Shown here in pieces: positions 26,122 to 42,428 of a stretch of DNA of 64,000 nucleotides; positions within the stretch are counted from its first letter, which is position 1, and each line of letters opens with the position of its first letter. This DNA comes from Candidatus Bathyarchaeota archaeon. Lineage in GTDB: Archaea > Thermoproteota > Bathyarchaeia > TCS64. The translations under genes were made by a program, and so were the position numbers. The notes under the pieces are model-generated. The model was not told the DNA's origin and made no database searches. It saw nothing but the letters and a program-made list of their open reading frames with translations. The stretch spans positions 736,001 to 800,000 of the forward strand of contig CAVYVF010000023.1 of assembly GCA_963771885.1 (NCBI GenBank). The letters run 5' to 3'.

Positions 26122-27471
26122 TTATGGCCCGATGGGCGTGTAGCCCAGGACATCCGGTTTGAAGACCGTGATCTGTGAGTCAGGGTCGTACTGCGCCATT
26201 ATGATGCTGACTGAAGCCTTCTCGGGGTTCGGACTACCAACGTTGGTACCAGGGAAGAAGCCCCAGACATCGTATGGAGGAGCGAACCTGTCGCCGAACG
26301 CATCCAGACGAGACCAGCCAGCAACACCGAACGTGTTAAGGCATATCGGAGCCTGCAGGTCGAGGACGTCCTTACCCGCCTGGCTCTGAGCCTGCATTAC
26401 TGAGGTTGCGAGAACCCAGCCGATGTCGTAGACGTACGCAGTGTATGTGCTGAACTGCTGAGCAGTCAGAGCCGTGTACCTTGTCTGAAGGTCGATGAAC
26501 CTCGAAGTCGCATCCTCGCGTGAGAGGAGGCTGTAGATGCCAATGTGGTTAACTTCCTCAGGGGCGTCATCCATACCACGCTGGCTCTTCGCAGTACCGT
26601 CGCTGCCCCACCAGTGGACGTTGTAGATGTTGTCGTATTCCTTAGCCTGCTTGACTATCACGGGGATCTCGTCGAACGAGAGTATCACCACGCCGACCCT
26701 CTGCCTCTCGCCGCCGTTCGCGGTGACCGCAGCGGCCACCGTCGCGTCGGCTAGGGTTAGGTAGTTGGAGAACTCTGTGGACTCAGCCGCGTACCTGATG
26801 ATGTCGCCAGCTACGTTACCGCCCTTCTGCGTCCAGATGGGCGTCAGGAGGTTGACGATGCCGTCTCCCCACGAGTCGCCGCGCTGGAAGATGACGATCG
26901 ACTTGACACCCGCCGCCCACATCACGTTAGCGAGCGCGGGAGCTAGGGCTGTATCGGCTGTGCACATGCGATACAGGTAGTCGTCGGCGATTGCGAGCGT
27001 CGGGGATGTGGAGGAGCTGCTCCACATGAGAATTTCGTTTGCGTTGCAGTAGCTGAGGGCTGCCTGCGCCTGGCTTGACCAGCCGCCACCCTCGAAGATG
27101 GTGACGCCGGAGGACTTGAAGCCCTGGACCTTTTCGAGGTGGACCTGGGCCTGACCTGTGGCGTCGTCGATGAGGTACTCGAACGTTACGTCATAACCTA
27201 TGAGGTCTGCGTATTCGTTGAGTCCTGGGGCGACGATCTGCTCGTGATATGGCTTGCCAGTCTCTAGGCCGGTTGTTGACGATGCGATGTATCCAAATTT
27301 GACCGTTGCACCCTTTAGGGGAGCCTCCTTTACAGTCGTGCCGCTTCCGGTGACCGTAACGGTTACGGATCCTCCTGGGGTCTGGGGTGCGGCGAAGTAA
27401 CCGATGCCTCCGCCTACGATCAATCCTGCGACCAATAGCACTATTGCTAGTGTCATTCCTTTATCTGCCAA
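26122..27471 (-). CDS. branched-chain amino acid-type ABC transporter substrate-binding protein
   Basis: N-terminal TM anchor and Thr-rich linker, SSTSPTLA, YRM, DSWG, SDG, YVYD; TTG start with GGAGTG SD. Confidence 0.88.
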   Translation of the reverse strand: MADKGMTLAIVLLVAGLIVGGGIGYFAAPQTPGGSVTVTVTGSGTTVKEAPLKGATVKFGYIASSTTGLETGKPYHEQIVAPGLNEYADLIGYDVTFEYLIDDATGQAQVHLEKVQGFKSSGVTIFEGGGWSSQAQAALSYCNANEILMWSSSSTSPTLAIADDYLYRMCTADTALAPALANVMWAAGVKSIVIFQRGDSWGDGIVNLLTPIWTQKGGNVAGDIIRYAAESTEFSNYLTLADATVAAAVTANGGERQRVGVVILSFDEIPVIVKQAKEYDNIYNVHWWGSDGTAKSQRGMDDAPEEVNHIGIYSLLSREDATSRFIDLQTRYTALTAQQFSTYTAYVYDIGWVLATSVMQAQSQAGKDVLDLQAPICLNTFGVAGWSRLDAFGDRFAPPYDVWGFFPGTNVGSPNPEKASVSIIMAQYDPDSQITVFKPDVLGYTPIGP

Positions 27472-28896: not shown

Positions 28897-28945
28897 CCCT
28901 GCGAATTGGTTAAAGCCAGCCCTCCACTCAACTTAGCCGATTGAG

Positions 28946-29428
28946 TTGGCGATCAGAGCCACCTACCCTCCCGGCGCTGCCCATGAGGCCGCTGAGATTT
29001 GCCTGAGGTGCGGCGTCTGCTGCAACGTTGCGCACAGCTGTCACGTCATGTACGACAGGAAGTACACGCCCACGTACACCTTCGTTTACGACTGCCTCGC
29101 GTCCGAGAAGGGGGCGTCGAACCCGAACATCTGGATGTGCGTGAGCTGCCACAAGTGTGAGGAGACGTGCCCGTACGAAGTCTCCCCTGTGCACTTCATT
29201 GAGGTTCTCAAGGGGCAGGCGCTGAGGGGCGGATGGGTGCACCCGACGATCCGCGCTGAGGTGGCGCAGGTGATCGCCACGGGGTTCGCCTTCCCGGTCT
29301 CTGGGGCGACCGAGAGGCAGAGACAGGCACTCAACCTAAAGCCGCTGCCAACGAAGCCTTTAGGAGACTTGGCGAAGATCGCCGAGAAGACGGGGCTCGC
29401 CGAGAGCCTGAAGGAGGGCTCGCAGTGA
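28946..29428 (+). CDS. hdrC: heterodisulfide reductase subunit C-like Fe-S protein
   Basis: IWMCVSCHKCEETCP, atypical N-terminal CLRCGVCC...C, HdrC-like C-terminus; overlaps the hdrB start. Confidence 0.8.
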   Translation: MAIRATYPPGAAHEAAEICLRCGVCCNVAHSCHVMYDRKYTPTYTFVYDCLASEKGASNPNIWMCVSCHKCEETCPYEVSPVHFIEVLKGQALRGGWVHPTIRAEVAQVIATGFAFPVSGATERQRQALNLKPLPTKPLGDLAKIAEKTGLAESLKEGSQ

Positions 29429-30312
29429 GTTACGCCCTTTTCCTCGGCTGCTTCATACCTGTTCGTCTCCCACAGATTGAGGCGGTGGCGCGTGACATAC
29501 TCCCCAGGCTCGGCATCGAGCTGGTTGACGTCGACGGCTTCACCTGCTGCCCCGAGCCAGTCGGCTTCCTTACGGATAGGATGACCGCCCTCTCAATCTC
29601 CGCGAGGAACATAGCGCTCGCTGAGGAGGCCGGTCTGGACATTCTGACTCTCTGCAACGGGTGCACCTATACGCTGAGGGCGGCGAACGCGGTGTTGAAG
29701 ACCGACCCCGTCCTCAGGGCGAGGGTGAACGAGGTCATCGCTGAGACGGGCCACCAGTACAAGGGCACTATCGAGGTGAGGCACTTCGCACAGGTCCTCT
29801 CAAAGCAGGTAGGGGTCGAGGCGATCAAGGCGCAGGTAAAGAAGCCGTTGACGGGTCTTCGAGTCGCGTGCCACCCCGGCTGCCACATAATCAGCCCACC
29901 CGTCGTCATGGATTACGATGACGCCCTCGACCCCCTCGTCCTCGACGGCATGGTCGCGGCGCTAGGCGCGGAGCCCGTTGACTGGGACAAGAAGACGGGT
30001 TGCTGCGGCTGGACGCTCACCAACTATGGCGAGAAGGAGGGGGCGAACAGGCTCCTCGGCGCCAAGCTCGCCGCGATGCACGAGGCGAGGGCGGACTGCA
30101 GCGCTGTCATCTGCCCACAGTGCTTCTATCAGTTAGACACGGGCCAGATGCTCGCCGGAAGGGAGCTGAAGCTCGACTACAAGATCCCCACGATCTACTA
30201 CCTGCAGCTCCTCGCCCTCGCCATGGGGAAGAGCATCGACGAGTCCGGCGTACGGCTACACAGGGTCAAGGACCCCGCGCTGGAGGAAAAGCTCGGGAGG
30301 CTCACGGCATGA
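29425..30312 (+). CDS. hdrB: heterodisulfide reductase subunit B
   Basis: Two CCG domains: FLGC/TCCPEP/LCNGC and HPGCH/GCCG/ICPQC. Confidence 0.92.
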   Translation: MSYALFLGCFIPVRLPQIEAVARDILPRLGIELVDVDGFTCCPEPVGFLTDRMTALSISARNIALAEEAGLDILTLCNGCTYTLRAANAVLKTDPVLRARVNEVIAETGHQYKGTIEVRHFAQVLSKQVGVEAIKAQVKKPLTGLRVACHPGCHIISPPVVMDYDDALDPLVLDGMVAALGAEPVDWDKKTGCCGWTLTNYGEKEGANRLLGAKLAAMHEARADCSAVICPQCFYQLDTGQMLAGRELKLDYKIPTIYYLQLLALAMGKSIDESGVRLHRVKDPALEEKLGRLTA

Positions 30313-32327
30313 ATGTGACGACGGTCTGCCCGTACTGCGGCGTCGGCTGCATGCTCTACCTACACGTCAGGGACGGCAAGGTCGTCGGCGTTCTCCCCCA
30401 TCCTAAGGGGCCGGGGGAAGGCCGCCTCTGCATAAAGGGGTGGAGCGCACACGAGTTCATCCACCACCCTGACCGCCTCAGGAAGCCGCTGATACGGGAA
30501 GGCTCAGGGTTCCGTGAGGCGGCTTGGGGTGAGGCGCTCGACCTCGTCGCGTCGAAGATGCTCGAGGCAAAGAGGCTGCATGGGCCGGACTCCGTCGCCT
30601 TCCTCGCCTCCGCCAAGGCGACGAACGAGGAGAACTACTTGATGCAGAAGCTCGCGCGTGCCGCCGTTGGCACAAACAACATCGACCACTGTGCCCGCCT
30701 CTGCCACAGCAGCACCGTCACGGGGATGAGCCGCGCCTTCGGCAGCGGCGCCATGACGAACAGCCAGGAGGACCTGGAGGACGCCGACGCCTTCCTAGTG
30801 ATCGGCTCGAACACGACGGAGCAGCACCCTCTCCTCGCTAGGCGGCTATTGAAGGCCGTGAAGCGCGGCGCCAAGCTTGTGCTCGCCGACCCACGAGACA
30901 TACCCCTCAAGGAGCACGCTGTCCTCCACCTCCGCCACAGGCCTGGGACGGATATCGCCCTCATCAACGCCATGATGAATGTCATCATAGCCGAGGGGCT
31001 TCAGGATGACGCCTTCATCGCGGCGAGGACCGAGGGCTACGAGGCCCTCAGGGAACATGTCGCCAAGTACACTCCCGAGTACGCCGAGGGGATAACCCAG
31101 GTCCCCGCCGACAAGATCAGGGATGCGGCGCGCATCTATGCCTCCGCCGAGAAGGCCGCCATACTCTTCAGCATGGGCATCACCCAGCACATCACTGGCG
31201 TAAACAACGTCCTAAGCACCGCGAACCTCGCCATGCTTACCGGCAACATAGGCAGGCGTGGCACCGGTGTCAACCCGCTGAGGGGGCAGAACAATGTCCA
31301 GGGCGCCTGCGATGTGGGGGCTCTCCCCGACCTCCTCCCCGGCTACCAGCGGGTGGCCGACCCCGAGGCGAGGAAGCGCATCGGCGAAGCGTGGGGCGCA
31401 GCGATGCCTACGGAGCCGGGGCTTACCCTCACCGAGAAGGTCAACGGCGCAGGTGACAAGGTCAGGGTCATGTTCGTCATGGGGGAGAACCCCCTCATGT
31501 CCGACCCCGACACAAACCACGTTAGGAAGCAGTTCGACAAGCTCGACTTCCTCGTCGTCTCCGAGTTATTCATGAGTGAGACGGCGGAGGTTGCAGACGT
31601 GGTGCTCCCCGCGGTAAGCTTCGCGGAGAAGGACGGCACATTCACGGCGACCGACCGACGTGTGCAGCTCCTCCACAAGGCCGTGGAACCCGAGGGGGAC
31701 GCGAAGCCGGACTGGTGGATACTGAGCCAGCTCTCCACGCGCCTTGGCTACCCGATGAGCTACGCCGGACCCTCCGCGATCATGGAGGAGGTCGCATCGG
31801 TCTCCGCCATCTACCGCGGCGTCAGCTACGATCGCCTTGAGGGCGAGGGGCTACGATGGCCTGTCCCCACAAAGGGTCATCCGGGGACTCCTATACTCCA
31901 CGTCGAAAAGTTCAGCAGAGGCCTCGGCAAGTTCCATGTAGTCGAGCACAGGCCCCCCGCCGAGGAGCCCGACGATGAGTACCCTCTTCTGCTGACGACA
32001 GGTCGGGTCCTCTGGCACTGGCACACTGGTACGATGACGAGGAGGAGCCCGACGCTCACTGACCAGATCAACGAGGCCTTCGTCGAGATAAACGAGCGCG
32101 ACGCGGAGAGGCTCGGCGTTGGTTACGGTGACGTGGTCAGGGTGGCGAGCAGGAGGGGCGAGATCACCCTCAAGGCGCGCGTAACCCCTGGGATTCTGGA
32201 GGGCGTCGTCTTCATACCCTTCCATTTCCACGAGGCGCCGGCTAACGTCCTCACAAACAATGCGGTGGACGCTGAGTCTAAGATACCCGAATACAAGGCC
32301 TGCGCCGTGCGCGTCACGAAGGCTTAG
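30309..32327 (+). CDS. fdhA: formate dehydrogenase alpha subunit (Mo/W-bisPGD, Cys-type)
   Basis: CPYCGVGC..LCIKG, DHCARLCH, GITQH, PLRGQNNVQG, EKDGT, TTGR, PFHF, IPEYK; ATG at 30309 overlaps the hdrB stop. Confidence 0.95.
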   Translation: MNVTTVCPYCGVGCMLYLHVRDGKVVGVLPHPKGPGEGRLCIKGWSAHEFIHHPDRLRKPLIREGSGFREAAWGEALDLVASKMLEAKRLHGPDSVAFLASAKATNEENYLMQKLARAAVGTNNIDHCARLCHSSTVTGMSRAFGSGAMTNSQEDLEDADAFLVIGSNTTEQHPLLARRLLKAVKRGAKLVLADPRDIPLKEHAVLHLRHRPGTDIALINAMMNVIIAEGLQDDAFIAARTEGYEALREHVAKYTPEYAEGITQVPADKIRDAARIYASAEKAAILFSMGITQHITGVNNVLSTANLAMLTGNIGRRGTGVNPLRGQNNVQGACDVGALPDLLPGYQRVADPEARKRIGEAWGAAMPTEPGLTLTEKVNGAGDKVRVMFVMGENPLMSDPDTNHVRKQFDKLDFLVVSELFMSETAEVADVVLPAVSFAEKDGTFTATDRRVQLLHKAVEPEGDAKPDWWILSQLSTRLGYPMSYAGPSAIMEEVASVSAIYRGVSYDRLEGEGLRWPVPTKGHPGTPILHVEKFSRGLGKFHVVEHRPPAEEPDDEYPLLLTTGRVLWHWHTGTMTRRSPTLTDQINEAFVEINERDAERLGVGYGDVVRVASRRGEITLKARVTPGILEGVVFIPFHFHEAPANVLTNNAVDAESKIPEYKACAVRVTKA

Positions 32328-32329
32328 TG

Positions 32330-34063
32330 TCACCAGCCGAGGGCGTAGCCGTCGCCCGTCCTCGGGCTCGCGCCCCCGTACTTCACCCCCGTGTGTGGGT
32401 CGAAGCGGATTGCGAGGCACCTGCCGTGGCTCCACGGCTTGTCCACGATGACCTTGTGCCCCCTCCCGCTGAGCCCCGCGAGGACGTCGTCTGGTACACC
32501 AGGCTCTGCCCTCAGCTCACCGGGGCGCACCATCTTCGGCCAGAAGGTACCTATGAAGTGATTCGTGTGGATGGTGGGCTTGTCGAGTGCGAGTTGGACG
32601 TCCATGCCGAAGTCGACATAGTTTATGAAGAACTGGCTCGTCCACTGATCCTGCCCGTCCCCACCCGGGGTGCCGTAGACCATGTAGGGCTCCCCCTCTT
32701 TCATTACGAGGCTAGGCGTCAGCGTGATGCGTGGCTTCTTCCCCGGCACAAGGCTGTTGGGGTGCCCCTCATCGAGGTTGAACTGCTGGCCGCGGGTGCC
32801 CATGGGGAAGCCGAGCCCGGGAACGAGTGGGCTCGTCCTTATCCAGCCCCCGCTCGGCGTCGCCGAGATCATGTTCCCCATCGGGTCGACTGCCTCGAGG
32901 TGCACCGTGTCGCCCTCGAATCCCCCCTTCAGCGTCGTCGCCACGAGCTCCACGGGTTCCGCCCTCCCCGGCCTCAGCAGCATGTTCGCCTCCTTTGGGT
33001 CGATGAGTTCCCTCCGCTCGTCGGCGTAGCTCTTTGAGAGAAGCATGTCGAGGGGCACGTCTGCGAAGTCCGGGTCCCCGTAGTAGTGCTCCCTGTCCGC
33101 GAAGGTGAGCTTCGCTGCCTCGGTCCACGTGTGCAGGTAGTCGACGGAGTTGTGCCCCATCTCAGCTAGGTCGAAGCCCTCCAGTAGGTTGTAGAGCTCC
33201 AGCTGGGCGGGGCCCTGCGTCCATGGGCCGCACTTGTAGACGTCGAGGCCGCGGTAGTTGCTGGTTATTGGCTTCTCGATGCGTGCCTCGTAGTCTGCGA
33301 AGTCCTCGAGGGTGATTAGGCCAGTGTTCTCCTTGCCGTAGACGTCGCGGCAGCGGAACGTGCTGGTGAAGCCGACTATCTTCTCGGCTATCGGCCCCCT
33401 GTAGAAGTGGTCGCGGCACGCTGTCAGCGCGGCGCTTCTTCCGACCCGCCGCTCACTCTTCTCGAGCTCGGCGACCTCCCTGAGAGTCCTCGCCCAGTCG
33501 GGGTTCCTGAAGACCTGCCCGACGACGGGTGGCTTCCCATCTGGGAGATAGATGGCTGCTGTCGTAGGCCACTCCCTGGCGAAGCGCTCCTGGGACGCGT
33601 TGATGCTCCTCACCATCGTTGGCTGGATTGGGTAGCCGTCCGCGGCGATGGCGATGCTGGGCTCCAGGCACTCGGCGAGGCTGAATGTGCCGTAGAGATC
33701 GAGTGCCATGAGCCATGCGTCGTATGCGCCGGGGACGACGGCGGGGGTGAAGCCGTCTTCGGGGATGAGGTCGTAGCCGTTGTCTCGGAACCAGCCTATC
33801 GAGGCGGCCTTCGGCGCGGGGCCGGAGCCGTTTATGGCGAGGACGGCCTCCTCATCTGCGAGGTAGATGAGGATAGGTACCTCGCCGGCGACGCCGACAA
33901 GGTCAGGCTTAGTCAGGGTAAGCGCGAACCACATGCTCACCGCGGCGTCGACGACGTTTCCGCCCCGCTTCAGGGCGTGGTGCCCTATCTCGGTGGCGAG
34001 GTAGTGGCTCGACGTGACCATCCCGTTCGTCCCCATGACGACGGGGCGGGTTGTGAAGGACAT
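32330..34063 (-). CDS. ggt: gamma-glutamyltransferase family protein
   Basis: GGNVVDAA, VPG, ADR..YYGDP, DTVH (Thr nucleophile), PGKKP, GTPGG.GQ. Confidence 0.9.
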   Translation of the reverse strand: MSFTTRPVVMGTNGMVTSSHYLATEIGHHALKRGGNVVDAAVSMWFALTLTKPDLVGVAGEVPILIYLADEEAVLAINGSGPAPKAASIGWFRDNGYDLIPEDGFTPAVVPGAYDAWLMALDLYGTFSLAECLEPSIAIAADGYPIQPTMVRSINASQERFAREWPTTAAIYLPDGKPPVVGQVFRNPDWARTLREVAELEKSERRVGRSAALTACRDHFYRGPIAEKIVGFTSTFRCRDVYGKENTGLITLEDFADYEARIEKPITSNYRGLDVYKCGPWTQGPAQLELYNLLEGFDLAEMGHNSVDYLHTWTEAAKLTFADREHYYGDPDFADVPLDMLLSKSYADERRELIDPKEANMLLRPGRAEPVELVATTLKGGFEGDTVHLEAVDPMGNMISATPSGGWIRTSPLVPGLGFPMGTRGQQFNLDEGHPNSLVPGKKPRITLTPSLVMKEGEPYMVYGTPGGDGQDQWTSQFFINYVDFGMDVQLALDKPTIHTNHFIGTFWPKMVRPGELRAEPGVPDDVLAGLSGRGHKVIVDKPWSHGRCLAIRFDPHTGVKYGGASPRTGDGYALGW

Positions 34064-36816: not shown

Positions 36817-37629
36817 ATGTCCCGTAAACCGGGTGAGGTAGCGGAGGTCATCTGCTCCCTGTACGAGGGGAAGACTAGGATCCCCTTGGCTAAGGTGTTT
36901 GTTCTCGCCATCCTCGCGGGGGCGTATGTCGGCTTCGGCAGCTATCTATACATGCTGGTGACTAGCGATTCGTCCGCTTACGTCGGGCGGGGGCTCTCCA
37001 CGATGATCGGAGGAGTCGTATTCTCCCTCGGGCTCATACTCATCATCCTCGGCGGAGGTGAACTGTTCACGGGAAACGGGTTGATCACGACTGCCTGCCT
37101 CTCGGGGAAGGCGCGGGTTGTTGACCTCGTGAAGAATTGGGTCATCGTCTACTTGGGTAACTTTGTTGGCTCGATACTTCTCGCTGGCCTCATCTTCGCC
37201 GCGGGAAGCTACCTCGTCTTCGACGGTTCAGTTGCTGCCCGCACGCTACAGGTCGCAACGTCGAAGGCCAATCTCGGTTTCAGTGACGCCCTGTTTAGGG
37301 GGATACTCTGTAACTGGCTAGTCTGTCTGGCAGTGTGGATAGCCGCTTCGGCTGAGGATACGACGGGGAAGATACTCGCCATGATCTTCCCAGTATCTGC
37401 CTTCGTCGCCATGGGGTTCGAGCATAGCGTCGCGAACATGTTCATGATCCCCTTCGGCATGATGATAGGCGGCGACCCTGCCCTCGTTGCGAAGGCGGGA
37501 GTCGACATGGTGAACATGAATGTGGCGGGTTTAGTTGGTAACTTGATCCCTGTAACCATCGGAAACATAATCGGCGGCGCCTTCTTCGTCGCGACCGCAT
37601 ACTGGTACGTCTACCTCAGAAAGCAGTAG
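36817..37629 (+). CDS. fdhC: formate/nitrite transporter (FNT) family channel
   Basis: AILAGAY, GGELFTGN, VYLGNFVG, GILCNWLVCLAVW, FEHSVANM, VTIGNIIGG. Confidence 0.92.
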   Translation: MSRKPGEVAEVICSLYEGKTRIPLAKVFVLAILAGAYVGFGSYLYMLVTSDSSAYVGRGLSTMIGGVVFSLGLILIILGGGELFTGNGLITTACLSGKARVVDLVKNWVIVYLGNFVGSILLAGLIFAAGSYLVFDGSVAARTLQVATSKANLGFSDALFRGILCNWLVCLAVWIAASAEDTTGKILAMIFPVSAFVAMGFEHSVANMFMIPFGMMIGGDPALVAKAGVDMVNMNVAGLVGNLIPVTIGNIIGGAFFVATAYWYVYLRKQ

Positions 37630-37722: not shown

Positions 37723-38355
37723 GTGCCTTCGCGGGAAAGTATCACAGAAGCCATCGTTAACATGGATGAGTCCGCGGCCTTGCGCCTAGTAGAGGAGAAA
37801 CTGGCGTCGGGCGCTGACCCAGTTGATGTCCTTGAGGAGTGCCGCCGGGGCATGTTCGCCGTCGGCGAGCGTTTCGAAAAGGGTGAGATGTACCTCTCCG
37901 AGTTATTCATGGCTTCGGAGATGTTCAACCAGATCACAGCGAGGGTGAAGCCGCTCCTAGGGAAGGCCGAGCTGAAGCGGGGCAAGATAGTGATTGGCAC
38001 GGTGGAGGGCGATGTCCACGACATCGGGAAGAACATCTTCACAAGCCTCCTCGAGGCTGAGGGATTCGAGGTCGTCGATCTAGGCGTCGACGTGCCCCCC
38101 TCACGATTCGTCGAGGCGATCCGCGAGCATTGCCCCGAGATAGTCGGCATGAGCAGCCTCCTCAGCACATCCCTCGACGCTGTGAAGAGGACAGTCGACG
38201 CCATTGAGGAGGCGGGGCTAAGGGGTAAGGTGAGAATCATAGTCGGCGGGGGTAGGATTGACGAGCAGGCCGCCGAGTACATAGTTCCTGACGCGTTCAC
38301 GGACAACGCCTCACAGGGTGTCAAGCGGTGCCGGGTGCTCATAGGGGAGGAATAA
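37723..38355 (+). CDS. corrinoid (B12-binding) protein, MtaC/MtbC-like
   Basis: Cap domain (VGERFE..YLSEL) plus DVHDIGKN, SSLL, VGGG. Confidence 0.92.
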   Translation: MPSRESITEAIVNMDESAALRLVEEKLASGADPVDVLEECRRGMFAVGERFEKGEMYLSELFMASEMFNQITARVKPLLGKAELKRGKIVIGTVEGDVHDIGKNIFTSLLEAEGFEVVDLGVDVPPSRFVEAIREHCPEIVGMSSLLSTSLDAVKRTVDAIEEAGLRGKVRIIVGGGRIDEQAAEYIVPDAFTDNASQGVKRCRVLIGEE

Positions 38356-38357
38356 AC

Positions 38358-39578
38358 GTGGACAATGCGGAGCTGTTCAAGCAGCGCAGGGAGCGCATGA
38401 GGCGCGCTATTGATCTGAAGGAGCCCGACAGGGTTCCGCTCATTGAGAGCCATGGCTACTTCGCCGCTCGCAACGCGGGGATAACGAGCCAGGAGTTCCT
38501 CTTCGACTACGCCAAAGCGGGGGCTGCCTCTGTGAAGGCTGCTGTAGACTATGGGTACGACACGGCGAGCGGCATGAACAGCCTCGGCGCGCTTCCCCTC
38601 ACTCTTGCCTTCGTCGGCGAGGGCGATGGGATCATGCCGGGGTGGATCAATGGCCCCGTACATGATATACTCGGGTGCCGGTACGCGAGGTTCCCCGGGA
38701 GGGAGCTCCCCGTCGACTCGCCCTTCCAGTTCATAGGCGAGGAGTACATGAAGGCTGAGGAGTACCCTGCACTCATCGACAACCCGAAGAAATACATCGC
38801 CGAGGTGCTCCTGCCCCGCTCCATGAGGGCACTTGAGAAGCCGGGCTCAGCCCATGCGATGGCTGCCCTGCACCGGTGGGGTGTCGAGTGCAGGAGGGGG
38901 GCCGAGGCGGGCGCCAAGCTGAGGGGTGAACTCAACGGGCTCGGGTTCCCAGGCTTCACCGAGGGCATGTCATACGCCCCACTCGACTTCATCGGCGACT
39001 TCGCCCGCGACATTAAGCACACACTCCTCGACTGCTACCGTAGGCCCGACGAGGTGAAGCAGGCGGCGGAGGCGCTCAAGGGGGTCATAATCGAGATGGG
39101 GCGGATAATGGCGAAGACCTCGTCGCCCGGCGCCGTCGTCTTCATCCCCCTACACCTAAACGAGTACTTCTCCCCCCAGCAGTACGCCGAGTTCTACTGG
39201 CCAACACTCAAGGCGGTCGTCGAGGACCTCGTTAGGCTCGGCTTCACCCCCGAGGTCTTCTACGAGGGGCAGCACGCGATGCACCTGGAGACAATCCTCG
39301 AGCTACCGAAGGGCAGGACGATCTCGCGCTTCGAGAAGACCGACCTCGTCAAGGCGAAGCGCATCATCGGCGACCACTCATGCATAGTGGGAGGCCCGCC
39401 CTCCTCCCTCTTCCTTACAACACCAGCGAAGGTCGACGCCTACGTGAAGGAGCTATTCGCCGAGGTTAAGCAGGGCGGAGGCTTCATGCTGAGCCCCGCC
39501 GTCCCCCTCCCCGCCGAGGCCCGCCCCGAGTGCGTCAAGGCGCTCATGGACGCCGTTAAAAGGTACGGCGCCTACTAG
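38358..39578 (+). CDS. uroporphyrinogen decarboxylase-superfamily (MtaA/CmuA-like) methyltransferase
   Basis: KEPDRVP, APLD, IPLH, FSPQQYAEFYWPTLK, GGGFML; context between corrinoid and activator genes. Confidence 0.8.
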   Translation: MDNAELFKQRRERMRRAIDLKEPDRVPLIESHGYFAARNAGITSQEFLFDYAKAGAASVKAAVDYGYDTASGMNSLGALPLTLAFVGEGDGIMPGWINGPVHDILGCRYARFPGRELPVDSPFQFIGEEYMKAEEYPALIDNPKKYIAEVLLPRSMRALEKPGSAHAMAALHRWGVECRRGAEAGAKLRGELNGLGFPGFTEGMSYAPLDFIGDFARDIKHTLLDCYRRPDEVKQAAEALKGVIIEMGRIMAKTSSPGAVVFIPLHLNEYFSPQQYAEFYWPTLKAVVEDLVRLGFTPEVFYEGQHAMHLETILELPKGRTISRFEKTDLVKAKRIIGDHSCIVGGPPSSLFLTTPAKVDAYVKELFAEVKQGGGFMLSPAVPLPAEARPECVKALMDAVKRYGAY

Positions 39579-39601
39579 GGCACAACGCCCCTCCCGACCG
39601 G

Positions 39602-41261
39602 GTGAATGTCTTGAGCCAATTTATCAGGGTCTTCTTTGAACCGCTCGGGCGGAGGGCAGAGGCAAACCCTGGCGAGAGCATACTCGAAGTGGCGCTCCGT
39701 TGCGGTGCTGGGATCCGCGCGGACTGCGGGGGCGCCTGCAGCTGTGGTAAATGTCGAGTCGTTATAGAGAACCAGAATGGACTATCAGCGCCCGACAGCT
39801 CGGAGGCGAGCCTACTAACCCCAGAAGAATTAGCCAGAGGCTACAGGCTCGCATGCACCACCAGGTTCCTAACCAGTGCCCGAAAGGTCACCGTGACCAT
39901 ACCACCTGAGAGCAGGCAGCGGGCGAGGCGATTCGCGGGGAAGGACGCTGAGCGGAGGGTGAAGCTCGACCCAGTCGTAGGACATATGGGCATAACTCAC
40001 ACGGGGCTTACACTCGGGCTTGCCGTCGACATCGGCACATCCAGGATCACGGCGCGCCTCATCGACCTCGTTAATGGAGTAAACATCGCCTCCGAGTCGA
40101 TCGAGAACCCGCAGATCGTCCACGGCGAGAATCTGATAACGCGCGCGTCATACGCTCAGGCGTCGGAACAGAACCTGCTGAGGCTCAGGGCTCTCCTAAT
40201 CGACGGCGTGAACACACTCATCGGGCGCCTAGTTGAGGGGAGAGCCATGCCGGAGGACGTACTCCAGGCTGTGGTCGTCGGTAACACCGTAATGCACCAC
40301 CTTTTCCTCGGCCTCGACACGAGCCGCCTCACGAGGGCTCCCTTCACGCCGATGACAAGGGAGACGGTTTGGCTCATGGGGATCGAGTCACGGCTCGACG
40401 TCAATCCCGCCGGGGTGGTCGTAGTTTTGCCCAACATCGACGCCTTCGTCGGGGCCGACGCGGTGGCGGACATCATCTCGAGCAACCTCCTGAGAAGAGC
40501 GGAGCCTACGCTTCTCGTCGACGTGGGTACAAACACCGAGATAATGCTGCGCGCCGGGGGAGAGACGCTTGCCTGCTCGTGCGCCTCGGGTCCCGCCTTC
40601 GAGGGGGAGCACATAGAATACGGCATGAAGGCCGTCGAGGGTGCCATTGAAAGAGTCAGGATCACCGGCAGCGCCGTCGAGTACAGGAGTCTCGGGGGCG
40701 GGAAGCCCGTGGGCATCTGCGGCTCAGGCATCGTCGACGCCGTCGCTGGGCTCCTCAGAAACAGGGCTCATAACCCCCGTCGGCAGGTTCACCGAGGACG
40801 CCGCTCCCCGGGTAATCCATGTCGGCAACCAGAGAAAATTCGTTATCGCTCCCCGGGCAGAGAGCGGCACCGGCGCTGACATCACCATCTCCGAGAGAGA
40901 CATAAACGAGGTCATACTCGCCAAGGCCGCCATAGCCTCCGCGACGGGTGTCCTCATGGCGATGAAGCGCGTCGAACCGAGCGACCTCAGGCGAGTCCTC
41001 GTCGCCGGCGCATTCGGCGGCCACCTCGACAAGGCGAACGCGAGGGCTATCGGGCTCATCCCCCCCGTAGAGGGCAGGCGCATCGCCTTCCTCGGGAACG
41101 CCGCTCTCGAAGGCGCATCGATGGCGCTCAAGTCGAGGCGCATCATCGACCTAGCCACGCGCATCTCGGTGGAGACGCGCTACGTGGAGCTAGCATCCAA
41201 CCCTGACTTCGACGCTGGCTTCAGGAAAGCCCTCCTACTCGCTGGCGCGAAACGATATTAG
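39602..41261 (+). CDS. reductive activator of corrinoid proteins (RACo/RamA-like, 2Fe-2S + ASKHA), apparent +1 frameshift at ~40757
   Basis: CGG.CSCGKC...RLAC, VDIGT, GNTVMHH, FVGAD, DVGTNTE, GPAFEG, GICGSG; second frame has AKAA, AGAFG, GNAALEGA, YVELA. Confidence 0.9.
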
Positions 41262-41297
41262 CCCCCGGGGCTAAGCAAGACAACTGGGGAGCACAAC

Positions 41298-42428
41298 TTG
41301 AATTCACGCGAGAGAGTCGAAGCTGCACTCGCACACAGGGAGCCCGATAGGCCCCCAGTCGACCTTGGCGGCACGGTCTCGGGCATACACAACGAGGCCT
41401 ACACGAAGCTGGTAGAGGCGCTCGGCCTCCGGCTCATGACTAGGGTCGACCCATGGGACGTGCAGCGGCTCGCAAAGCTCGATGAGGCAGTGCTCGAGAA
41501 GCTCGGCGTCGACTTCCGCCACATCTCCCTTAGGTCTGTGCCCGGCTCCGGCGGGTTAGAGCCGGATGCCTCCGGGAGGCCCTGCTTCGTAGACGAGTGG
41601 GGTATCAAGTGGGGGCGGAACCCGCACTACTATGACATGGTCGCCCATCCGCTGGCGAACGCGTCGATGGAGGACCTAGCGGACTACCCGTGGCCCGACC
41701 CCGGAGACCCGAGGAGGTTCGAGGGGCTCAGGGAAGAGGCGAAGCGTCTCCACCATGGCACCGACTTTGCGGTACAGGCAGATGCCTTCTTCGGAGGCAT
41801 ATATGAGTGCGCGTGGTGGATGAGAGGCTTCTCGGCTTTCACCGTCGACATGTATCGCCACCCTGAGTTCGCCAACCTGCTCCTCGACAAGATACAGGCC
41901 ATCTACCTCGACTTTTACACCCGATATTTAGACGTCGTAGGCCCATACGTGCAGGTCTTCGACTATAATGACGATATTGGGATGCAGACTGGGCCGCTGC
42001 TCTCTCCCGCAGTGTTCCGGCGCTATCTCAAGCCTCGCTACGCGGAGATATTTAGGCTGATTCACTCGAAGTCGAAGGCGAGGATATTCATGCACACATG
42101 CGGAGCCGTGCGCCAGCTCATCCCAGACCTAATCGAGATCGGGCTCGACGTTCTCAACCCTGTCCAGCCTCTCGCGTCGGGCATGGAGATCAGCGGGCTC
42201 AAACGCGACTTCGGCGATAATCTAACGTTCCATGGCGGCGTCGACATTCAGAGACTCTTACCCAATGGGTCGATTGGGGAGGTGGAGACGGAGGTGCGAC
42301 GCATCTGTGAGGTCGGTGGCGCAGGGGGAGGTCTCATACTCGCTGGCGCTCACAATATTCAGGCGGATGTTCCACCTGGAAACATTCTAGCGATGTTCAG
42401 AGCGGTGGGTAGTATGGGGGTTGAGTGA
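41298..42428 (+). CDS. uroporphyrinogen decarboxylase-superfamily methyltransferase
   Basis: REPDRPP, DEWG, DDIGMQ, HTCG, NPVQ, FHGG, HNIQ. Confidence 0.85.
   Translation: MNSRERVEAALAHREPDRPPVDLGGTVSGIHNEAYTKLVEALGLRLMTRVDPWDVQRLAKLDEAVLEKLGVDFRHISLRSVPGSGGLEPDASGRPCFVDEWGIKWGRNPHYYDMVAHPLANASMEDLADYPWPDPGDPRRFEGLREEAKRLHHGTDFAVQADAFFGGIYECAWWMRGFSAFTVDMYRHPEFANLLLDKIQAIYLDFYTRYLDVVGPYVQVFDYNDDIGMQTGPLLSPAVFRRYLKPRYAEIFRLIHSKSKARIFMHTCGAVRQLIPDLIEIGLDVLNPVQPLASGMEISGLKRDFGDNLTFHGGVDIQRLLPNGSIGEVETEVRRICEVGGAGGGLILAGAHNIQADVPPGNILAMFRAVGSMGVE

Follow-up and report, generated by a model that had tools for sequence, protein, structure and literature searches.

A conserved operon of three genes, hdrC-hdrB-fdhA, lies in a stretch of 64,000 nucleotides (hereafter the window, meaning the whole stretch) of a Candidatus Bathyarchaeota archaeon (assembly GCA_963771885.1, contig CAVYVF010000023.1, positions 736,001 to 800,000 of the forward strand). 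The trio plausibly encodes a soluble, flavin-free, non-bifurcating formate:disulfide oxidoreductase, in which FdhA is docked directly on HdrC-HdrB; we assign to this reading a probability of about 0.7. A direct three-subunit complex of this kind had been put forward in the initial annotation of the window, and is now supported by the conservation of the trio, a predicted interface, natural HdrC::FdhA fusions and an altered HdrB pocket. The genes are the following:

28946..29428, + strand: hdrC-like gene, 160 aa, TTG start, two [4Fe-4S] clusters
29425..30312, + strand: hdrB, 295 aa, GTG start, two CCG domains
30309..32327, + strand: fdhA, 672 aa, ATG start, Mo/W-bisPGD, cytoplasmic, Cys ligand, one [4Fe-4S] cluster

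All three proteins keep their metal or cofactor ligands, and the unit lacks any flavin-binding subunit. FdhA scores above the cut-off of TIGR01591 (886.5 bits versus 666.25), and is indeed the minimal cytoplasmic form initially described, having only the Fe4S4, Molybdopterin and Molydop_binding domains, and an N-terminus which opens with the cluster motif and carries no signal peptide. The cluster cysteines C7/10/14/41, as well as K43, C132, H133 and R325, are kept in 49/49 trio FdhA, and the best PDB match is the F420-type FdhA of methanogens (9T1S_L, 779 bits). Selenocysteine at the metal site was ruled out, as all of the 27 aligned FdhA have Cys; WtpA had no match in the genome, and the search does not decide between Mo and W. 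This is the only family-passing FdhA seen in the genome: among six molybdopterin matches it is the sole one matched by FdhA at E 1e-100, and three other molybdopterin-family genes scanned fall far below the FdhA cut-off. HdrB and the HdrC-like protein are both below the cut-offs of their families, the former moderately (262 versus 345 for TIGR03288, the CoB-CoM HdrB family), the latter by far (61 versus 160). Yet HdrB cysteines are conserved in 73/73 sequences at the positions counted, all ten cysteines of the non-cubane clusters are invariant in alignment A6, and the HdrB model (pLDDT 91.7) superimposes on 5ODC_B with a TM of 0.93. The HdrC-like protein keeps the eight cluster cysteines (C19/22/25/75 and C65/68/71/32), and forms a subfamily of its own, marked by Tyr77 and by a remodelled, longer loop in the first cluster motif.

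A search for HdrC covered 401 genomes of the class and found one or more in 249; among them a group of orthologues is clearly set apart. The loci examined were the 40 best genome loci other than its own, and the best 80 of 144 confirmed relatives from metagenomes. The order hdrC-hdrB-fdhA is maintained in 31 of the 40 genome loci, distributed among families f1, f3, f16 and f23, and in 50 of the 80 metagenome loci. Three of the remaining genome loci are cut by contig ends, one is broken at a run of Ns, two are fusions, and three host ordinary, non-orthologous HdrC (31-32% identity); 28 metagenome loci are cut by contig ends, and two (L142 and L176) are exceptions. Many contigs being short, these counts are lower bounds. 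Genes flanking the trio differ between genera. Both 4-nt overlaps reported earlier, GTGA between hdrC and hdrB (29425-28) and ATGA between hdrB and fdhA (30309-12), are present in the reading frames, and the convergent ggt gene said to close the unit corresponds to a gamma-glutamyltranspeptidase gene at 32330-34063. Since overlapping junctions recur at each joint in 25/26 orthologous loci (by eye), the arrangement is not a matter of chance; in most orthologues a GGAGG-type site lies ahead of hdrB and of fdhA (by eye). A 775-aa fdhA reading frame starting at 30000 was discarded as a false start, as orthologues begin at the ATG.

All named homologues are Bathyarchaeia or metagenome entries. The trio was not found outside Bathyarchaeia in an HdrB search of 401 genomes of the phylum, where the 17 next-best loci lack fdhA; bacteria were not searched with gene context. 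No published account of an hdrA-less hdrC-hdrB-fdhA unit turned up in a literature search, though gene tables and supplements of Bathyarchaeia papers could list the cluster. In another class of the phylum, four loci (L244, L254, L255 and L256) carry a standalone hdrB, with neither hdrC nor hdrA, which is oriented divergently to an aldehyde:ferredoxin-oxidoreductase-like gene and a ferredoxin subunit (by eye); this hdrB is the sister group of trio HdrB in the tree.

A contact between FdhA and HdrC emerged from complex prediction, based on alignments of 27 rows each and on three runs plus controls. The complex scored 0.82 (0.83, 0.79 and 0.82 in the runs) against 0.00 for the best control, at least 96% of contacts are shared between the runs, and partner pLDDT is at least 82. 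The score mark is reached by 116/157 solved and 2/215 mismatched pairs, counts which are only approximate for the alignments used here. In the predicted interface, FdhA residues 39-46, including the ligand C41, face HdrC residues 20-24 and 74-78, including C22 and C75, and the distance from the FdhA cluster to the HdrC cluster should consequently be short. HdrC residues at the interface set the subfamily apart: V24 and Y77 are found in 90/103 and 101/103 trio-type proteins, the majority of 17 other HdrC having T and Q instead (Y77 in 1/17). In FdhA, W45, R178 and Q586 are found in 49, 48 and 46 of 49 trio proteins, and none of them in nine FdhA fused to NuoG. Part of this pattern could be explained by common descent alone. 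In two genomes, G108 and G183, an HdrC-dicluster domain with all eight cysteines intact is fused in frame to FdhA, hdrB is missing, and in a quick tree the fusion FdhA groups as sister to trio FdhA from their own genus (support 99). An AlphaFold2 model of a natural fusion was uninformative on the domain contact (pLDDT <50 for residues 1-133), and was not used. The two fusion loci (L099:5886-8321 and L100:1-2427, both on the minus strand), from which hdrB has been lost, are both located behind a C_GCAxxG_C_C redox-protein gene, the product of which is possibly a new acceptor.

In the mechanism proposed, formate would be oxidised at the Mo/W site of FdhA, and two electrons would move from the FdhA [4Fe-4S] cluster to cluster 1 and cluster 2 of HdrC, and hence to HdrB's pair of non-cubane clusters, which would cleave the disulfide. 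The HdrC cluster bound by C19/C22/C25/C75, i.e. cluster 1, is presumably the entry cluster, by homology with SdhB. As HdrC is normally fed by HdrA, electrons passing from HdrA to HdrC to HdrB (PMC5861303), FdhA would take the place of HdrA. The thiol formed might be recycled by other thiol-linked enzymes, such as the NuoEF-NuoG/HdrC-HdrB module described below, where present, HdrA complexes, Lpd-like or CoA-disulfide-reductase-like flavoproteins, and glycine cleavage. The potential of lipoamide is ~-290 mV. Formate is placed at -430 mV and CoM-S-S-CoB at -140 mV in one source (PMC5861303), the latter at -281 mV in another (PMC12054007). A drop from -430 mV to between -140 and ~-290 mV would correspond to ~-27 to -56 kJ/mol, energy not kept because the unit has no flavin; given a downhill release of 27-56 kJ/mol without conservation, the direction would be that of formate oxidation.

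The disulfide is likely not CoM-S-S-CoB, as had been suspected. The 5ODR structure shows CoB bound by R14, R201 and R240, CoM contacted through the main chain of G46 and G198, and F233 along the tunnel (PMC13261682). Of these six residues, only R14 stays in 73 distinct trio HdrB (69/73): the Gly-rich loop GAGGGVR, which includes R201, is shortened by one residue and changed into GWTLTNY, Q replaces F233 in 70/73, and R240 is lost in 72/73. The organism had been described as lacking mcr in the window, and no match to mcrA was found in the whole genome either; comA and comD had no match as well, CoB genes and cysteate synthase not being searched. In the order to which the organism belongs, comD is above the cut-off in 3/79 genomes.

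If the trio is a formate:disulfide oxidoreductase, lipoyl-GcvH is the leading, still tentative, candidate substrate; CoA or another small thiol or persulfide is also possible, something else altogether is conceivable with somewhat less probability, and CoM-S-S-CoB is improbable. Lipoyl-GcvH has been proposed as a substrate of non-methanogen HdrB in a study in which the true substrate is stated as unknown (PMC9723716). GcvH is encoded by 78/79 genomes of the order and by 4/4 distant trio genomes, and the host genome encodes Fhs, three GcvH, GcvP and two Lpd-like genes. In contrast, gcvH is found within the fetched flanks of one trio locus only (L185) and lpd beside one (L081), and gcvH is more often located behind hdrA-linked hdrB, the loop of which differs from that of trio HdrB. 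CoA-disulfide-reductase-like genes, below the cut-off, lie behind the trio in six loci. Loss of lpd fails as a marker for a lipoyl substrate, since Lpd-like genes occur in 69/79 genomes and in the host. Similarly, ggt, the DJ-1 gene and glutathione were rejected as clues, since ggt and DJ-1 adjoin the trio only in the closest relatives (5 loci each).

Several points weigh against a direct formate:disulfide oxidoreductase. A bifurcating enzyme would conserve energy which is lost in this reaction. The complex score may come from likeness to solved contacts between FdhA and ferredoxin domains, and the controls did not include canonical HdrC. M. marburgensis HdrB also has Val at R240, so that loss of this residue alone is not diagnostic, and the arguments for a substrate other than CoM-S-S-CoB are the change at R201, the loop and the lack of CoM gene matches. 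The maturation gene fdhD (PF02634) was not found in the host genome, which is only 92% complete, nor in any of 11 trio- or fusion-bearing genomes of the host genus. It occurs in 52/79 genomes of the order, in 3/17 other genomes of the host genus (g1) and in 30/32 of genus g2, and is near the trio in two loci; some organisms expressing formate dehydrogenase are reported to lack fdhD (PMC10609526). Eventually, in one of the 81 complete trios (L148) fdhA is directly followed by co-directional gltD-like, mvhD and hdrA genes, an arrangement favouring bifurcation.

The initial annotation had stressed that hdrA, mvhD and fdhB are missing. This is correct for the surroundings of the trio in the window, and does not hold for the genome (2.46 Mb, 6.7% contamination), where six FlpD/MvhD matches, several hdrA genes and one standalone FrhB/FpoF-like gene were found. 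Since hdrA is nearly universal, being present in the host and in 78/79 genomes of the order, its absence fails as a test, and cannot be the ground on which independence from HdrA is claimed. Hence the trio could belong to a bifurcating Fdh-Hdr complex as one of its halves, the other being supplied in trans by an HdrA-MvhD fusion, perhaps with the FrhB/FpoF-like protein, and the whole transferring electrons from formate to both a disulfide and ferredoxin. Two hdrA-mvhD fusions are located behind mvhGA, without hdrBC, on contig C2, and the distant hdrA2 gene of M. acetivorans, the product of which works in trans with HdrB2C2 (PMC5296606), is a precedent to which the arrangement in L148 may be added. 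Yet the predicted FdhA-binding face of HdrC is unlike the one in hdrA-linked HdrC, and HdrC domains fuse directly to FdhA. The FrhB/FpoF-like protein has an N-terminal ferredoxin, a layout like that of FpoF, and is not encoded beside fdh or hdr genes. Moreover, the genome has three further hdrBC sets, two of them inside hdrA clusters, and where hdrA was found near the trio in other loci (L083, L093 and L168) it is accompanied by its own hdrBC. On balance, completion in trans seems fairly improbable. Two hdrCBA clusters were found on contig C23, one followed by gcvH and lplA. The hdr/mvh cluster ending with gcvH and lplA (C23:981680-999077, L029) contains many split ORFs, apparent frameshifts perhaps due to assembly errors.

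Alternatively, the three genes may be co-regulated and encode separate proteins, FdhA reducing free ferredoxin, which in turn would feed HdrBC and other sinks. Ferredoxin feeds HdrB2C2 of M. acetivorans directly, with a turnover of 0.62 per min without HdrA2 and 3.6 with it (PMC5296606), and the fusions found without HdrB imply that FdhA-HdrC can serve another acceptor. The same fusions, together with the conserved 4-nt overlaps and the predicted cluster-to-cluster interface, argue for a FdhA-HdrC contact, and make this scenario quite unlikely. Least likely of all is the reverse reaction, by which formate made from CO2 would supply Fhs and the reductive glycine pathway: the pathway has been proposed for the group (PMC10321748), Fhs, GcvH and GcvP are present, no match to pyruvate formate-lyase was found in the host genome, and the NuoEFG-type enzymes replaced by the trio are of a kind reversible in clostridia (PMC5861303), yet electron flow from a thiol to CO2 would be uphill by 140-290 mV in a unit lacking a flavin or a ferredoxin-input subunit, and the formate/nitrite (FNT) channel often encoded nearby fits formate uptake.

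FdhA is encoded by 54/79 genomes of the order. It is of the trio type in 33, including the two fusions, two genomes (G252 and G088) assigned by identity only, and one (G198) assigned from a cut contig, and of a NuoG-fused type in 20. Ten of the latter, checked in context, all carry nuoG::fdhA, most with nuoEF, and ten were assigned by identity and length. Both FdhA types occur within genera g1 and g2, yet they coexist in no genome, against 8.4 expected if independent, an expectation to be taken with caution because the genomes are kin. G144 and G198 carry additional FdhA of other kinds, and the only FdhA of G141 is linked to mvhD/fdhB. The two types occupy the same sites: the four genes upstream of the nuoEFG-fdhA operon in L220 are also those upstream of the trio in L077, L080, L081, L083 and L084, and the genes downstream of the operons in L218 and L223 are those found downstream of the trio in L085, L092-L094 and L174 (by eye in either case). 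As trio FdhA and NuoG-fused FdhA are separate lineages in the tree, entire operons have been displaced at shared sites. This suggests that the trio fulfils, by a different route, the function of an NAD-linked formate dehydrogenase. Additional FdhA wirings, with sulfhydrogenase beta/gamma-like subunits or with mvhD, were seen among L229:3923-7864, L228:3982-7291 and L230:2092-4594, the last with an fdhB-like gene.

A sister module, nuoE-nuoF-[nuoG N-part::HdrC tail]-hdrB, lacks hdrA as well, and is found on contig C7:75591-79671 (L030:5591-9671), behind a group 4 hydrogenase-like cluster. The module occurs in 7/79 genomes, six of which are of the trio type; the trio is four to five times as common, and is thus independent of it. 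In five loci (L163, L172, L174, L182 and L176) nuoE-nuoF start back-to-back with trio-type hdrC, the module being complete only in L176, where the trio is broken. Sister-module HdrB groups with trio HdrB (support 99 in a FastTree of 40 rows, from which most trio rows were left out), apart from hdrA-linked HdrB, and has R14, E44, W196, Y201 and Q232 in 7/7 sequences, as trio HdrB does. Judging from these residues, the two systems may have a common substrate. An extension of this view, which is speculative and rather doubtful, is a flavin-free thiol redox bus: the trio would load formate electrons onto lipoyl-GcvH or a similar carrier, and the sister module would exchange them with NAD and ferredoxin. 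The pair would then amount to an NAD-linked formate dehydrogenase divided into two enzymes, which a disulfide shuttle connects, and formate would drive reductive glycine synthesis directly, ~20 kJ/mol harder than NADH.

The closest PDB subunits for trio FdhA, HdrB and HdrC are those of the FdhAB-MvhD-HdrABC complex of hydrogenotrophic methanogens (7BKB, 9T1S), in which formate likewise reaches a disulfide at HdrB. The trio differs because FdhB, MvhD and HdrA are lacking, and with them flavin and bifurcation, because the HdrB pocket is altered, and because the host has no mcrA match. HdrC/HdrB-like domains are wired to another catalytic subunit, without HdrA, in the thiol:fumarate reductase TfrAB. 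There, however, the partner is a fumarate-reducing flavoprotein, thiols are oxidised, and the C and B domains are fused; the corresponding NCBIfam model (NF004898) was matched weakly. A soluble fumarate-reductase-like unit, hdrC-hdrB-sdhB-like-sdhA/tfrA-like-hdrA::mvhD, resides at C23:970932-976955 (L028). The HdrB-linked group 4 hydrogenases Drh, Ehd, Ehe and Ehg, described from genomes of methanogenic and non-methanogenic archaea, have a donor module proposed to feed HdrB(C) directly (PMC9723716). In the trio the donor is instead a minimal FdhA, without hydrogenase or membrane arm; Ehg includes FdhF, but together with HdrA and MvhD (PMC9723716). Subunits of group 4 [NiFe] hydrogenases are absent from the unit in the window, and are not conserved neighbours of the trio. 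M. acetivorans HdrB2C2 shows that an HdrBC unit can be stable, can be produced in E. coli, and reduces a disulfide without HdrA if low-potential electrons are supplied at HdrC; unlike the trio, it acts on CoM-S-S-CoB, is not partnered by FdhA, and shows a sixfold higher rate when HdrA2 is added in trans (PMC5296606). The NuoEFG-type or HylABC-FdhF2 formate dehydrogenases, found at the same chromosomal sites in relatives, also have a dicluster domain next to FdhA, but the acceptor is NAD (plus ferredoxin) at an FMN site (PMC5861303), and their FdhA is of a separate lineage.

HdrA-independent combinations of a donor with HdrBC, such as Drh and Ehd, are known from genomes, and barely from biochemistry; the trio is a real, conserved operon which adds a formate-linked variant, and formate thus joins the donors wired to HdrBC without HdrA. 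HdrB is widespread in non-methanogenic archaea and in bacteria, and its real substrate there has long been a question (PMC9723716). With three soluble proteins, formate as donor, no flavin bifurcation and no membrane, the trio is apparently the simplest entry point to this question. For a large sediment lineage, it would be wrong to annotate hdrBC plus fdhA as a bifurcating complex of the methanogen type.

Two further features of the window pertain to the operon:

28910..28915, + strand: archaeal TATA-like box, TTAAAG, 31-36 nt upstream of the hdrC start, read from the sequence
36817..37629, + strand: formate/nitrite (FNT) channel gene, above the TIGR00790 cut-off, 4.5 kb downstream of the trio

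The box is likely the trio's own putative promoter, and a similar AT-rich box, equally far from hdrC, was recognised by eye at the majority of 26 orthologous loci. The FNT channel is close to the trio in six loci (the window, L072, L082, L102, L125 and L166); the association is loose, and the gene is outside the operon. Prismane matches were also obtained, which do not resolve CODH from HCP. In one metatranscriptome 8% of words were found, with short contigs at depth 2-4 on hdrC, hdrB and fdhA, none bridging two genes; these were dropped as evidence of expression, since DNA carry-over is possible. In the same data, an ABC-type substrate-binding gene upstream (26122-27471) has a contig depth of 50-170, against 0-4 for the trio, values which derive from contigs only and are no measure of expression. 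Directly behind the FNT channel, positions 37723-42428 encode a corrinoid protein, two URO-D-family methyltransferase-like proteins and a RACo activator, i.e. a methyltransferase system beside the formate genes.

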